Notes under the pieces: generated by a model | The model's database searches: none | The model's input: only the letters and a program-made list of their open reading frames with translations | What the model was told of the DNA's origin: nothing | Shown here: piece after piece, positions 14,292 through 32,830 of the stretch | Layout of the letters: each line of letters begins with the position of its first letter | Numbering within the stretch: position 1 is the stretch's first letter | Made by a program: the position numbers and the translations under genes | Source of the DNA: an uncultured virus (IMG/VR IMGVR_UViG_3300010885_003339) | Lineage: Duplodnaviria; Heunggongvirae; Uroviricota; Caudoviricetes | Strand: one strand, 5' to 3' | Length of the DNA: 64,000 nt | Virus record (IMG/VR): IMGVR_UViG_3300010885_003339

Positions 14292-15230
14292 ATGAAAACA
14301 TTCAAGCAACACACTAAAGAAAAGAAGATGAAAGATGGAGAGGGGTCGGGAGTAATTCCGGCCGCGATCCACTTCAAACACTTTGCAGATATCGATATCA
14401 GCACCGGTGTTATACCGGCGGCTATTCACTTCAAGCATGTTCATAAAAAGAAAAGAGAAAAGCTTGATGAAGTAGTAAGTAAAAATGTGTTTGCGGGCAT
14501 GGTGGCGGCCTCCGCAGAGAAGGTTAAGAATAAGAAACCTAAAGTTGAGAAGAATCCATTTAATAGATGGGTAAACGACACCAGTGATAACGATCATCTC
14601 TCTATTTTAGGCCATGGTAAAAAAGATTTTAATGACCCTCGTCGAGATGATAACCCTCGTCATACAGAGATTGCAAATAAACTTCATAGTACCAACAAAT
14701 TCACAGCTAATCATGAAGATGCCATTAAAGGTTATACCAATGATAGTGAAGGCGGTGAACCTGGAAGTCAAACAATCAACAAGCCTCTCATTAAAGGTAA
14801 GTTTAAAAATGAGACTCATCGAAAAAATGTTGAGTCTCATGCTAAACAGATAGACAAGGCTATTGACAAGAACAAGATCCAACATGATGTTCATGTCTAT
14901 TCTGGAACAAGCTTCAATCCTATGAAGCACATGGATAAAGAAGGTCGTCTACGTTCACCAGCTTATATCTCAGCCACTCACAGCAGGGCTGTAGCTGCTG
15001 GATATGCACAAGATGGTGGTAAAGATTATAATATGAGACACATCATCCATATTCATCTAAAGAAGGGTGATCCTGCAACACATGTCTCCAGAATATCTGA
15101 TTTTAAGGGTGAACATGAAACACTCATAAAGCGCGGTACCACACTACAGCATCACGGCCATGAAGATCATGGTGATAGTGATGGTGAAACTTGGTATCGC
15201 ATCCATCACATGAGCATTGCTAAAGACTGA
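14292..15230 (+). CDS. ADP-ribosyltransferase (Alt/VIP2-like) with capsid-targeting N-terminus
   Basis: AIKGYT..INKPL, VYSG, PAYISAT, GEHETLIKRGT (ExE); N-terminus MKTFKQHTKE. Confidence 0.75.
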   Translation: MKTFKQHTKEKKMKDGEGSGVIPAAIHFKHFADIDISTGVIPAAIHFKHVHKKKREKLDEVVSKNVFAGMVAASAEKVKNKKPKVEKNPFNRWVNDTSDNDHLSILGHGKKDFNDPRRDDNPRHTEIANKLHSTNKFTANHEDAIKGYTNDSEGGEPGSQTINKPLIKGKFKNETHRKNVESHAKQIDKAIDKNKIQHDVHVYSGTSFNPMKHMDKEGRLRSPAYISATHSRAVAAGYAQDGGKDYNMRHIIHIHLKKGDPATHVSRISDFKGEHETLIKRGTTLQHHGHEDHGDSDGETWYRIHHMSIAKD

Positions 15231-23754: not shown

Positions 23755-23847
23755 TCATGCATTCCGTGCATGGTTGATATGCGAAAATAATACTTGACCT
23801 CCGTTCCTAACCGTGCTATATTTACAGCATAAGTTGAGAACGGAGAT
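23755..23847 (+). promoter_or_regulatory. Early sigma70-type promoter with ATGC-N7-GCAT-N7-ATGC box
   Basis: Box at 23757-23782; TTGACC(23794)-N17-TATATT(23817). Confidence 0.75.
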
Positions 23848-23853
23848 TTTGTT

Positions 23854-24474
23854 ATGAGCATCACTAAGACAACCCACAGCTACCAAGGTAGCGAATCAGT
23901 TTCGACCGCCGTCACCTCTGCGGTTGGTACCACCCTCAAGGTCTACTATGACTATGTTCAGGTCATGTCCGATGAATGGGCTTCTACCCTACATGCCAAG
24001 TATTGGGACGGCGAGTTCGTCAAGACTGAAATTTGGGTTGATTCCGCCACTGTGGATGCGACTCCAGAGGTTCTGGCCGCTGTAGAGAACTTCTATTACA
24101 AACATGCGGTCGAGGCTTTGGTCGAGCAAGCCAAAGCGGAAGCACTGGCCATCAAGACTGAATCCGTTGTGAAGGTCGTTGCTGGCCGCGACAACAAAGG
24201 CGTGTCTGGTAAGGTCGTGGTTCAGATTGAACGCCCGTATGGCATGGGTTACCGCTCGGTGCTAGCCACCAAGCTTGGGATTGCTACCAGTGAAGATAAG
24301 CATAATGTGGTTGCCAAGAATGGCAAAACCTACAGTAACTATAAGGACGTGGTATGGGCATGGGCGCGGAACGTAGTTCTGGTGTCTCCTCCTGAGCCCG
24401 ACCTTTCTGGAGTTGAGGAGATAGCCCGTGACAAGGCGAAACGGTCACTTAAAGAAGTCTATAAAGCGGCGTGA
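23854..24474 (+). CDS. Hypothetical early protein (KOW/SH3-like segment)
   Basis: RBS GGAG; VVKVVAGRDNKGVSGKV. Confidence 0.6.
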   Translation: MSITKTTHSYQGSESVSTAVTSAVGTTLKVYYDYVQVMSDEWASTLHAKYWDGEFVKTEIWVDSATVDATPEVLAAVENFYYKHAVEALVEQAKAEALAIKTESVVKVVAGRDNKGVSGKVVVQIERPYGMGYRSVLATKLGIATSEDKHNVVAKNGKTYSNYKDVVWAWARNVVLVSPPEPDLSGVEEIARDKAKRSLKEVYKAA

Positions 24475-24586
24475 CATGCTAGCCAAGGCGCTCTCCAATG
24501 GCGCCTTCCACCAACGGATTGTGAAGTCTAAGAAGCTTTACAAACGCAAGCACCACAATAGTGGCATTCCTGCAACATTAGACTAA
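24428..24586 (+). CDS. 52-aa ArfA-like basic peptide (not in the ORF track)
   Basis: GAGGAG 7 nt before GTG 24428; MTRRNGHLKKSIKRRDMLAKALSNGAFHQRIVKSKKLYKRKHHNSGIPATLD. Confidence 0.55.
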   Translation: MTRRNGHLKKSIKRRDMLAKALSNGAFHQRIVKSKKLYKRKHHNSGIPATLD

Positions 24587-24601
24587 GGTCTAATCTGAAT
24601 T

Positions 24602-24669
24602 ATGCCGATTTTGGTTGCAATCTTCCGTGGTTAGTGTATATTGTTCCTGTAAGTTAGTGATGAGGAGAC
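24602..24669 (+). promoter_or_regulatory. Early sigma70-type promoter
   Basis: ATGC at 24602, TTGCAA(24615)-N16-TATATT(24637), leader TAAGTTAGTGATGAGGAG. Confidence 0.65.
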
Positions 24670-24676
24670 ATTCGAT

Positions 24677-25084
24677 ATGGCATTCATGAATCAAGAAAAG
24701 AAAGCGGCCCTTGCGCCTGCTATCAAAGCGGCCCTTAAAAAGTATGGTATTAAGGGTTCTCTCGCGGTTGACAACTATTCGACTCTGGTGTTGAACATCA
24801 AGTCTGGTCCCATCGATTTCATTCAGAACTATAATGAGACCGTTGGTCAGCAACCTGGTGGTTTTCGTAACGGTAGCCCTGCTGCCAGTTGCATTCAGGT
24901 GAACCGTTACTGGTTCCGTGAACACTTCAGTGACAAGGCTAAGAACTTCTTGACCGAGGTCATTGAAGCCATGATGAAAGGCAACCACAACAACAGTGAT
25001 GCCAGTATCGACTATTTTGATGTTGGTTGGTATATCGATGTTAACATTGGTAAGTGGTCGAAACCATATATTTTGGAGCGTTGA
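24677..25084 (+). CDS. Conserved hypothetical phage early protein
   Basis: MAFMNQEKK..IQVN.Y..NSDASIDYFDVGWY..IGKW.KPY. Confidence 0.65.
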   Translation: MAFMNQEKKAALAPAIKAALKKYGIKGSLAVDNYSTLVLNIKSGPIDFIQNYNETVGQQPGGFRNGSPAASCIQVNRYWFREHFSDKAKNFLTEVIEAMMKGNHNNSDASIDYFDVGWYIDVNIGKWSKPYILER

Positions 25085-26635: not shown

Positions 26636-27340
26636 ATGCTGAATAATCCATGGATAGCTACAGAAACCAGCCCTTATCAATACTATGATGCGGGGCTTAG
26701 AAAATATCTATTATCTGTATTCAATTATATGACGATGGCACTAAGTATTAGTGGTATTGTCGCCTATGCGGTTGGAGTCAGCCCAGAACTGATGCAGGCC
26801 ATATGGGGAAGCCCCCTCAAGTGGCTGGTGATGCTGGCACCTATCGGTATGGCACTCGCCATAGGGTTTCTTATCAATGATATGAAAACTCACACAGCTA
26901 AACTATGCCTAGCTATATTTGCAGGCCTGATGGGACTAAGCCTTAGTAGCATCTTTGCCGTGTTCACCATGGCATCTATCTCTCAGGTATTTTTTATCAG
27001 TGCAGCCACATTTGGAACCACTGCAATATGGGGGTATACCACTAAACGTGACCTTAGTAATTTTGGTTCGTTTCTAATGATGGGATTGATCGGTATCGTG
27101 ATTGCTGGATTGGTCAACATCTTTCTACAAAGTAGTGTATTGCAGATGGTATGTAGTGCATTAGGTGTAGTGATCTTCGTTGGATTTACAGCTTATGATA
27201 TGCAACAAATCAAACAAGCATATTATGAAACAGTCGGCGAAGAAAGAGAGAAGTCCGGAGTGATAGGTGCATTGAATCTATATCTTGACTTTGTTAATAT
27301 CTTTACAAGCCTATTGAATCTCATCGGAGACAGGAAATGA
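26636..27340 (+). CDS. yccA: Bax inhibitor-1/YccA family membrane protein
   Basis: YDAGLRKYLLSVFNYM, about 7 TM helices, GYTTKRDLS, TAYD.Q.IK, GAL.LYLDFVN.F. Confidence 0.88.
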   Translation: MLNNPWIATETSPYQYYDAGLRKYLLSVFNYMTMALSISGIVAYAVGVSPELMQAIWGSPLKWLVMLAPIGMALAIGFLINDMKTHTAKLCLAIFAGLMGLSLSSIFAVFTMASISQVFFISAATFGTTAIWGYTTKRDLSNFGSFLMMGLIGIVIAGLVNIFLQSSVLQMVCSALGVVIFVGFTAYDMQQIKQAYYETVGEEREKSGVIGALNLYLDFVNIFTSLLNLIGDRK

Positions 27341-28269: not shown

Positions 28270-28986
28270 ATGTCCAAGAAGCCTAAAAAGCCAATCAACA
28301 CAAACACACAGCAACAGCACCGTCCAGTGAATCATTTTGAATTGAGAAGCATCAAACCTCTCACAGTTAACCAAGAGAACACCTTTGATGCATATCACGA
28401 TGGTTACAATCTAATGTTACATGGTTATGCAGGCACAGGCAAAACATTCTGCGCTCTATATCTCGCATTGAAAGATATTCTATCCGGCCGTTCTGATGCG
28501 GAGAGAATCATCCTAATTCGTTCTGTGGTTCCATCTAGAGATATGGGTTTTCTTCCAGGTTCTATCAAAGATAAGATCAAAGTCTATGAAGAACCATATA
28601 AAGAAATTTGTGATGATCTATTTGGTCGCGGAGATGGCTATGACATATTGAAGATGAAGAAACTGGTTGAGTTTACAACCACATCATTCCTTAGAGGTTT
28701 GACATTCAACAATGCCATTGTTATCGTGGATGAAACCAATAACATGCTCATGTCAGAACTGGATACAGTCATGACCCGAATGGGCAATAACTCTCGTATC
28801 ATCTTCTGTGGTGACTATCGTCAGACAGACCTGAACAAGCCTCATGAAAAAGAAGGCATCACACAGTTTATGAAGATTACCCATAAAATAAATAGTTTCA
28901 GACACATTGAGTTCCAGAAAGAGGATATCGTCCGCTCTGGAGTTGTCAAGGACTATATCATCCAGAAAACGGAAATGGGACTATGA
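28270..28986 (+). CDS. phoH: PhoH-like ATPase
   Basis: Walker A GYAGTGKT, GFLPG, FLRGLTF, DE, TRMG, GD..Q.DL, DIVRS; ATG 28270 after AGGAG. Confidence 0.92.
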   Translation: MSKKPKKPINTNTQQQHRPVNHFELRSIKPLTVNQENTFDAYHDGYNLMLHGYAGTGKTFCALYLALKDILSGRSDAERIILIRSVVPSRDMGFLPGSIKDKIKVYEEPYKEICDDLFGRGDGYDILKMKKLVEFTTTSFLRGLTFNNAIVIVDETNNMLMSELDTVMTRMGNNSRIIFCGDYRQTDLNKPHEKEGITQFMKITHKINSFRHIEFQKEDIVRSGVVKDYIIQKTEMGL

Positions 28987-29546
28987 AAAAATTCAAAGAA
29001 TATATCAAAGAACAGGCGGATGACCCTATGCTGGCCTTCCGCAAGAAGAAGAAAAAGGAACACCTAGAAGAAGGTAATCCTCTCTCCCGTATGACTAAGC
29101 TTGATGCTGAAGGCCGTCATTCTATCGTCATGTCCGCTGAAAGACATAACTTGACACCTGATGAAAATGGTGCTAGAATGGCTGAGTTGAAGAAGCAATG
29201 GAAAGACCGTGGTTACGGATTTCGCAAGACTGAAGGCAAGTGGGATGAAGGTGGCGGAGTAGGCAGAGAGAACTCCATCCATGTTTTTGCTAAAGGCTCT
29301 AAGAAAGAAGATAGTGCTGAACTGCTAAAACATGCGAAAGAACTTTCGACACACCACAACCAAGATGCTTTCATTCATCGTTCACCGACCGGTAAAGGCA
29401 CTGCGGTCTACACAGGCACAGAGAAGAAGGGTGAGAAGGTTAGCTACGGTAACACTGCTTATAATGCAAGAAACCCATATGGTGAAACGCAATATAAGAA
29501 GAACAAGCCAGAAGCTAAGAGACCATCCTTTACGTTTAAGGAGTGA
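28983..29546 (+). CDS. SAM lyase (T3 SAMase)-like protein with capsid-targeting N-terminus
   Basis: MKKFKEYIKE leader; MSAERHNL..EN..R, GKWDE, RENSI, NQDAF line up with T3 SAMase motifs as recalled; AATAAATA at 28887. Confidence 0.55.
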   Translation: MKKFKEYIKEQADDPMLAFRKKKKKEHLEEGNPLSRMTKLDAEGRHSIVMSAERHNLTPDENGARMAELKKQWKDRGYGFRKTEGKWDEGGGVGRENSIHVFAKGSKKEDSAELLKHAKELSTHHNQDAFIHRSPTGKGTAVYTGTEKKGEKVSYGNTAYNARNPYGETQYKKNKPEAKRPSFTFKE

Positions 29547-32314: not shown

Positions 32315-32494
32315 ATGAATATGACTTGGAAATTGTTCAGTGGTTTTGTAATCGGGTTTCTGTTTCTTCCACTGATAGTGATGCTTGACAAATATGTAGG
32401 ACCTGGAGCAGGATCCATCGCTATTGCTATGCTTGGAATGGGTATCTGCGTAGCGGCCTGTGTTTGGTTGATTGAAAAGATGAGTAAACTCTGA
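32315..32494 (+). CDS. 59-aa two-helix membrane protein (not in the ORF track)
   Basis: MNMTWKLFSGFVIGFLFLPLIVMLDKYVGPGAGSIAIAMLGMGICVAACVWLIEKMSKL. Confidence 0.5.
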   Translation: MNMTWKLFSGFVIGFLFLPLIVMLDKYVGPGAGSIAIAMLGMGICVAACVWLIEKMSKL

Positions 32495-32519
32495 GGTTGC
32501 CAACAGAGGCCACTTGTGA

Positions 32520-32527
32520 TATAAATA
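32520..32527 (+). promoter_or_regulatory. T4 late promoter driving the tmRNA
   Basis: Perfect TATAAATA. Confidence 0.75.
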
Positions 32528-32532
32528 TAGAT

Positions 32533-32830
32533 GCTAAGGTTGTTGATAATGACATAATATACGGAAGAGACCTCGGGGCAGTACCGAGCGGGTCCACCAT
32601 AGATACATAGAAGGTTGTTGACCTTTTAAGGCAGTTAGCTAATGCCACCTGAGTAGAAGTCTCGGCTATGTATCTTTGATGGGCCCGAAATAGAATCGAT
32701 CTACGAGTAAAAGTCAGAGTAGACCAAGGCAAAACATAAATGCAGCAAACGATAACTTTGCATTTGAGACACGCCTAGCGGCTTAATCTCATTGGGTATG
32801 GGTTCCACCTCGAAACAGAACGGGCCCACT
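32533..32830 (+). ncRNA. ssrA: Circularly permuted two-piece tmRNA (alphaproteobacterial type)
   Basis: Acceptor piece first: T-arm CTCGG-GGCAGTA-CCGAG then CGGGTCC-A-CCA ending at 32599. Coding piece starts GGGCCCG at 32681 and gives a G3-U70 pair. Tag frame 32742-32786 reads AANDNFAFETRLAA*. Outer ends approximate. Confidence 0.93.

Follow-up and report, generated by a model that had tools for sequence, protein, structure and literature searches.

Does the 3' end of a 206-aa phage gene conceal the start of a second gene, and could that gene encode a ribosome-rescue factor of the ArfA type? The locus lies in a 64,000-nt stretch of DNA from an uncultured virus, hereafter called the window. 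This DNA comes from a T4-like myophage and includes genes for a primase, an RNase H-like exonuclease, equivalents of gp32, gp59 and gp33, and baseplate and tail proteins. A preliminary description of this DNA had proposed a hidden 52-aa peptide acting as an early, constitutively short ArfA-like factor that complements a late tmRNA, or as an mRNA-channel blocker. As a whole, this interpretation stood in part: the ArfA homology was recovered and an early, short product fits the sequence, but two of the motif matches proved weaker, the A18 position is not conserved and the pairing with tmRNA was not borne out.

A conserved gene overlapping its upstream neighbour

The GAGGAG and GTG reported within the 3' end of the upstream gene were found where they had been claimed (Table 1). 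From the GTG at 24428, the 52-codon ORF runs in the +1 frame relative to the 206-aa gene and overlaps the last 47 nt of that gene; it is hidden because its start sits inside its neighbour. The encoded peptide contains 15 Lys and Arg residues and two Asp. The upstream gene itself matched no family at cut-off in profile searches and nothing in the Atlas at 0.9; many of its relatives terminate in AA(A), and it holds the small-gene start in 11 lineages.

Table 1. Features of the small gene, its surroundings and the tmRNA in the window
Feature	Position	Strand	Description
Sigma-70-type promoter before the 206-aa gene	23794..23822	+	TTGACC-17-TATATT, extended TG; 10/12 consensus
206-aa gene	23854..24474	+	Holds the small-gene start in its 3' end; relatives found by search
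Shine-Dalgarno (SD) GAGGAG	24415..24420	+	7-nt spacer to GTG; duplex energy -8.6 kcal/mol; doubles as upstream-gene Glu-Glu codons
52-codon ArfA-like gene	24428..24586	+	GTG to TAA; phrog_20887 / DUF7230-like; conservation and profile matches
Conserved core, residues 16-41	24473..24550	+	Corresponds to E. coli ArfA N14-K42 minus G35-K36-G37
Second in-frame ATG	24476..24478	+	Directly 3' of the upstream TGA (TGA-C-ATG); possible 36-aa product
Promoter-upstream DNA element	24560..24593	+	Two short palindromes; codes last nine residues and stop; outside the protein motif
Sigma-70-type promoter of the next transcription unit	24615..24642	+	9/12; element-to-promoter spacing same in relatives
135-aa downstream gene	24677..25084	+	phrog_10415; profile match
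Permuted two-piece tmRNA, alphaproteobacterial type	32493..32830	+	RF01849, 91.9 bits; RF04321 at 32538-32786

Relatives of the upstream gene were found at 24 loci, 23 of which were examined after one duplicate was dropped. The same +1 overlap ORF was present in 12 of the 23, corresponding to nine distinct lineages including the window, and absent from the other 11, corresponding to seven; two further carrier lineages (L104 and L140) came from a separate search, giving 11 in total. The small-gene frame was open in all 11 carrier lineages, the other frames being often closed, and mismatch rates over 23 core codons were 0.32, 0.27 and 0.60 at codon positions 1, 2 and 3, respectively. With the frame kept in 11 lineages and divergence concentrated at third codon positions, these comparisons confirm the earlier proposal that the 52-codon ORF is a real, conserved gene.

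It is therefore highly improbable that the frame is untranslated, whether as a shadow of regulatory DNA or as a frameshift tail of the upstream protein. The ORF does fall below the length used by the gene caller, GAGGAG can equally be read as Glu-Glu and the 3' end is a promoter element (see below); however, the third-position bias, the frame open in 11 of 11 lineages and the 681 family proteins described below all argue for translation, and a TAG lies two codons before the GTG. A frameshift fusion to the upstream protein was rejected, as no slippery run common to the relatives was seen by eye.

The start codon was considered separately. We counted as SD-led any start codon (ATG or GTG) that lies inside the upstream gene, is in the +1 frame and has an SD duplex energy of -5 kcal/mol or lower. 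Such a start was found in eight of the nine carrier lineages and in both extra lineages (10/11), compared with one of seven non-carriers and a background of 4/54 window genes and 34/288 other ORFs; this enrichment is support rather than proof, because the lineages are related and Glu and Lys codons favour SD-like runs. In addition, the upstream-frame residues encoding the small-gene start vary between lineages, and five of the nine carrier lineages have no in-frame ATG or GTG within 30 nt after the upstream stop. On these grounds, the GTG at 24428 is likely the start of the small gene. The N-terminal 15 residues of the peptide differ among close relatives.

An alternative hypothesis, which concerns the start only, is that the main product is a 36-aa form initiated at ATG 24476, a codon absent from the preliminary description, through coupling to the upstream stop and either alone or beside the 52-aa form. 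The TGA-C-ATG spacing is compatible with this form, database calls start there (P0004, and P0007, which is 92% identical and called from the equivalent ATG), and many family members have just three to five residues ahead of a conserved Asn. Nevertheless, we consider it unlikely: the shorter form would lose basic residues and the D/N preceding the helix, no SD was seen by eye before ATG 24476, and the carrier lineages more often have an SD-led upstream start (10/11) while five of nine offer no start codon after the stop.

Remote homology to ArfA

A profile search against ArfA, proposed in the preliminary description as a check, had a divided outcome: a direct Pfam search was negative, whereas profiles built from phage relatives recovered remote homology. 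Searched alone, the peptide had no match to ArfA (PF03889) even at E 10 and none to PF23876, and nothing was found in NCBIfam or, by phmmer, in the PDB; the near-identical record G002 also lacked a PF03889 match. The peptide alone matched phrog_20887 over residues 13-42 (E 1.4e-5). Other single-sequence searches returned one protein, two representatives and 14 weak phage records, among which gp101 of RHph_N34 is a family member. A match in Xanthomonas JUN5 was rejected as antisense to a gene. In the Atlas, the clusters listed at 0.92 were unnamed ones and those of DUF7230 and ArfA, and the recognition value did not reach the threshold set there.

Two profiles of phage relatives, A2 (14 rows) and A5 (51 rows, leaving out near-duplicates and the GenBank-only L087), were built without ArfA ever serving as a seed. 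Against the PDB, A2 gave six matches, all of them ArfA (E 0.006-0.05), and six E. coli ArfA chains headed the ten matches of A5 (E 2.5e-7 to 1.4e-5), the next match standing at 0.047. Alignment of the family with ArfA by hhalign gave a probability of 96% (E 2.7e-9). With the clade of the query removed (40 rows), the profile scored the query at 57 bits and ArfA at 34 bits, and the best of 2000 shuffles reached 13.6. Of the 51 rows of A5, 19 gave PF03889 matches at E values up to 1, the best being 6e-4. A protein search with A5 returned 681 proteins at E 0.01; among the 120 listed, PF03889 was found in two and PF23876 in four. Taken together, these comparisons support the view that the peptide is a shortened, distant relative of ArfA and, as judged from the profiles, belongs to a large family spread over phages and Alphaproteobacteria rather than being a lone case.

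The same searches also bear on a different reading, in which the product is a small basic protein of ArfA-like ancestry with another job, at other RNA, DNA or another ribosome site, and owes part of its likeness to Lys/Arg composition. Pairwise identity is indeed low, the query-ArfA pairwise score was reached by 4 of 5000 shuffles, the Atlas value is below threshold, and a weak quick tree (112 rows, 58 columns) set 30 of 31 canonical ArfAs apart with support 84, the phage and alphaproteobacterial rows being mixed. Composition-keeping shuffles of ArfA, however, scored at most 8.4 bits against 32.6 for ArfA itself, and loop-bearing, loop-less and KH-bearing members form a continuous series (see below), so that this reading appears rather improbable.

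Residue-level comparison with ArfA

The E. coli ArfA sequence given in the preliminary description agrees with NC_000913.3. In ArfA, residues 31-48 fill the mRNA tunnel and residues 27-30 add a strand to RF2, while L19, L24 and F25 bind W319 of RF2 and A18 packs against I11 and C1914 (PMC5378476). The core of the peptide comprises a helix, F27 (equivalent to F25), Q29-R30-I31-V32 (equivalent to the RF2-binding strand 27-30), K35-K36, Y38 and R40. F25 and the RF2-recruiting strand thus appear, from the alignment, to be retained as F27, Q29, R30 and I31. Across the 51 rows, and in ArfA numbering, the most conserved columns were L20 (Leu in 49), F25 (Phe or Tyr in 48), R28 (Arg or Lys in 51), V29 (Val or Ile in 50) and K33, Y39 and R41 (51 each); PMC5378476 and PMC8012679 describe these residues as contacting RF2 or the channel. 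The Trp in the switch loop of RF2, to which ArfA binds, is retained in alphaproteobacterial RF2s. An AlphaFold model of the peptide was poor (pTM 0.25), with only helix 17-23 formed.

Other defining positions differ. The A18 position is occupied by K20 here and by Lys, Arg or Gln in 43 of 51 relatives, a conserved Ala lying one place earlier, compared with Ala or Ser in 30 of 30 canonical ArfAs (the best 30 of 36 found among 401 genomes). The L19 and L24 equivalents are Ala in the peptide and variable in the family, E30 is replaced by Val, Ala stands at E17, and the ordered N-terminal minidomain (I11, A18) is not conserved in the family. The absence of the GKGS loop, as first described, was borne out, the piece missing from KKGKGSY being exactly G35-K36-G37; none of the 51 phage rows has a GKG loop, partly by construction because the scan pattern excluded it, and L051 and L061 keep part of it. 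In the basic tail, Y38, R40 and K41 are kept and 14 residues follow Y38, but KH lies two positions out of register and is lacking in other members of the clade. Canonical KH spacing was found in 18 of the 30 canonical ArfAs; rows L296-L299, which we take to be Pseudomonas-type ArfAs, lack both the HxKGxI start and KH. Of the motif matches first put forward, L....F.QR..K.KK holds on the alignment; H.K..IK can be kept only with a one-residue gap, in an overlap-coded stretch that differs between close relatives; and Y.RK..H fails as written, the His lying at Y+4/+5 and not at Y+6.

These differences give some weight to the alternative that the peptide occupies the vacant mRNA channel, and may contact RF2 as well, without opening RF2, as a natural counterpart of an A18T-like state. 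It would then plug non-stop or vacant ribosomes and exclude host tmRNA-SmpB or ArfB, or park 30S or 70S particles, in the service of translation take-over or of sparing phage proteins from tagging. The basic channel tail is the best-conserved part and the activating minidomain (I11, A18) is not conserved. ArfA carrying A18T binds and recruits RF2 without release, A18 being needed for RF2 activation (PMC5378476). The lost positions should nevertheless not be given too much weight: most of 34 single-Cys ArfA mutants, A18C among them, stay active (PMC4245945), and the Pseudomonas-type rows also do without the HxKGxI start and KH. Against a blocker, F25 and the RF2-binding strand are kept. With the evidence from cellular relatives and tmRNA given below, we regard blocking as a minority possibility for this gene.

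Relatives in Alphaproteobacteria

A scan of species genomes yielded two alphaproteobacterial loci, both loop-less, with KH and an in-ORF terminator, and A5 matched in 31 of 401 genomes of the class of one of these loci (Alphaproteobacteria). Among 30 alphaproteobacterial loci, some of which may be prophage or stray contigs, a GKGS-like loop was seen in eight, KH spaced as in ArfA in 15 and, under a looser rule, an in-gene terminator in four. The alphaproteobacterial members, loop-bearing or loop-less and KH-bearing, thus appear in sequence as a continuous series that bridges the phage family to ArfA. A published survey found arfA in none of 2,376 Alphaproteobacteria genomes (PMC11633108).

In-gene terminators were found in 7 of 53 family members and in 0 of 453 control ORF ends (with a fixed control window of 60 nt). 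Both arfA and brfA are repressed by trans-translation through an in-gene terminator design (PMC8012679, PMC6881298). Of the independent indications that ribosome rescue is the task of the loop-less family, we consider these terminators the strongest. In the cellular members they would fit a back-up rescue factor and not an inhibitor, which counts against channel blocking, although such feedback control is absent in the clade of the query, a point in favour of blocking.

Several further relatives were observed. L206, L207 and L212-L241 are unannotated-looking alphaproteobacterial ArfA-like genes, which PF03889 misses in the two genomes tested. In Rhizobium phage RHph_N34, gp101 (L087:2480-2671, NC_070884.1), annotated as hypothetical, has a long hydrophobic tail like that of full-length ArfA. 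L091, L092 and L095-L100 have very long Lys/Arg-rich N-terminal runs, with no ordinary in-frame start codon upstream. In many Acinetobacter T4-like phages a weak match recurs at a constant site, around position 2550 of each record, and Sinorhizobium phages phiM12 (weakly, E 0.04), phiM7 and phiN3 and Agrobacterium phages also match the family.

Transcription signals and the 3' DNA element

Eight sigma-70-type sites were found, compared with 5.4 in shuffles, and the match before the upstream gene is weak on its own; similar -35/-10 pairs were seen by eye at the same place in relatives of this gene. As a sigma-70-type promoter precedes the upstream gene and similar ones occur in its relatives, the two-gene transcript can fairly be read as early, in keeping with the early expression first suggested.

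The 3' end of the small gene coincides with a double-palindrome element. This element has a single copy in the window. In related phages, copies stand at several early-type promoters, some 30 nt ahead of -35-like boxes (L104:1311 and 2161, L193:1334 and 2198, L014, L016, L018, L019, L020 and L041); those at L104:1311 and L193:1334 and those in L014, L016, L018-L020 and L041 lie elsewhere than at the end of this gene. It also precedes the upstream gene in L104 and L193, and lies out of frame or behind the small-gene stop in L104 and L140. The element is possibly a site for a phage regulator. Hairpins at this 3' end (folding z -2.4 to -5.6) were rejected as a non-stop regulatory RNA signal, because copies of this DNA also stand in front of other promoters and out of frame. 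From its distribution, we read the stretch of the last nine codons and stop as a promoter element of the next unit and not as an arfA-type truncation signal. A terminator scan found none on the + strand inside the 52-codon ORF. The normal stop and the absence of an in-gene terminator fit the proposed constitutively short product.

The phage tmRNA

The late tmRNA invoked in the preliminary description is present in the same phage (Table 1). A motif of T4 late promoters, TATAAATA, stands at 32520-32527, and a tag, ANDNFAFETRLAA, was read by eye at 32745-32786; ARAGORN missed the tmRNA at 32493-32830. Because this tmRNA is of alphaproteobacterial type, the host is probably alphaproteobacterial. 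That the phage itself carries a tmRNA is a further point against channel blocking.

Co-occurrence was assessed in 28 long phage records, mostly incomplete and partly pre-selected (nine of the 20 carriers were known when the records were chosen). A5 matched in 20 of them and the RF01849 permuted tmRNA in 10, with both in eight; RF00023 was over cut-off in none of the 28. The tmRNA was thus present in 8 of 20 carriers and 2 of 8 non-carriers. With no enrichment, this comparison shows no link of the ArfA-like gene with tmRNA and does not support the functional pairing that had been proposed.

Three other genes in the window were recorded. A 312-aa gene (14292-15230) has an ADP-ribosyltransferase domain (PF03496, E 1e-15) and is perhaps, we assume, an Alt/Mod-like host take-over enzyme. 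The gene at 28983-29546 belongs to the S-adenosylmethionine lyase family (PF23780, E 1e-7), with a possible anti-restriction function, and that at 26636-27340, among early genes, encodes a Bax inhibitor-1 family membrane protein (PF01027, E 6e-56).

Proposed function

The reading that we prefer, with a probability slightly above one half (about 0.55), is that the product is an early, unregulated, RF2-dependent rescue factor. The small gene would be the second cistron of an early transcript made by host RNA polymerase, and ribosomes starting at the SD-led GTG inside the upstream gene would make a basic, mostly unfolded 52-aa peptide. On a ribosome that has reached the 3' end of a broken message and stalled there, the basic tail of the peptide (K33-K41, with Y38 and R40) would enter the vacant mRNA entry channel, while the Q29-V32 strand and F27 would lie against host RF2, and the nascent chain would be released without a stop codon. 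Given a normal stop and no in-gene terminator, the peptide would be made whether or not trans-translation works. It could supplement rescue, without tagging, in the early phase of infection while host mRNAs are broken down; the phage tmRNA would serve late. Translation, timing, ribosome binding, RF2 activation and purpose are all steps that we infer. Several points count against rescue: compared with ArfA, the A18 position is not small, L19 and L24 are Ala, E30 is Val, G35-K36-G37 are gone and KH is out of register; the N-terminal residues vary among close relatives; the peptide alone has no PF03889 match; its structure model is poor; and no co-occurrence with tmRNA was seen.

More tentatively, and as a possibility that we favour less than not, the loop-less family, in which Ala immediately precedes the A18 position, may constitute a second, largely unannotated ArfA-type branch in phages and Alphaproteobacteria, which would open the release factor without the N-terminal minidomain of E. 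coli ArfA or, in phages, block the channel. In T4-like phages it might have escaped tmRNA feedback and be employed early to gain control of rescue and to withstand host mRNA- or tRNA-cutting defences, the phage tmRNA acting late.

If the peptide is active, a large family that as yet has no name (681 proteins at E 0.01, and 20 of 28 long phage records, which were partly pre-selected) would gain a function, phages would be shown to supply their own ribosome rescue, and ArfA-type rescue would be extended to Alphaproteobacteria. It would also serve as a naturally reduced ArfA with which to find the parts that open RF2. The surprise is limited, as phage ArfA annotations are already in print.

Comparison with known systems

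Phage genes annotated as ArfA include gp30 of pelagiphage HTVC027P, with high expression early and late (PMC12753301), and g10 of Citromicrobium phage RXM (PMC8953757); like the present gene these are phage-borne, and they are annotated as ArfA-domain genes in phages of Alphaproteobacteria. Searches of cultured phages with the loop-bearing L230 (no matches) and L150 (two partial matches) did not recover these published genes. Our searches of the open literature turned up no phage ArfA that had been studied functionally, nor did DUF7230 appear in them, and the open text of PMC10914614 does not mention ArfA.

BrfA of B. subtilis and ArfT of Francisella are likewise small basic release-factor adaptors for non-stop ribosomes (PMC6881298, PMC8012679); adaptors of this kind are species-specific (PMC8012679), and BrfA has an in-gene terminator (PMC6881298), as do some members of the family of the peptide. 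No BrfA chain was among the PDB matches of A2 or A5 up to E 10; ArfT may have no PDB entry.

With DUF7230 (PF23876) and phrog_20887 the peptide shares its phrog_20887 match (E 1.4e-5), and PF23876 matches at E values up to 1 were obtained for 18 of its 51 relatives. It differs in lacking a PF23876 match of its own, in starting within the upstream gene and in having the promoter element for its tail.

The closest known system is ArfA itself (E. coli YhdL; PF03889; PDB 5U4I, 5MDV, 5H5U and 5MGP). The two share a short helix, L20, F25, Q27-R28-V29, K33-K34, Y39, R41 and a basic tail, and the length of the peptide is that of the active truncated form of ArfA. In contrast, the peptide lacks G35-K36-G37, has Lys at A18, Ala at E17 and Val at E30, carries KH out of register and has an unconserved N-terminus, and its phage-borne gene ends in a normal stop, with neither a hydrophobic tail nor in-gene hairpin control. 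Because several defining features of ArfA fail, the gene is on its sequence best classed as ArfA-like, a variant of the DUF7230/phrog_20887 type, and not as ArfA.
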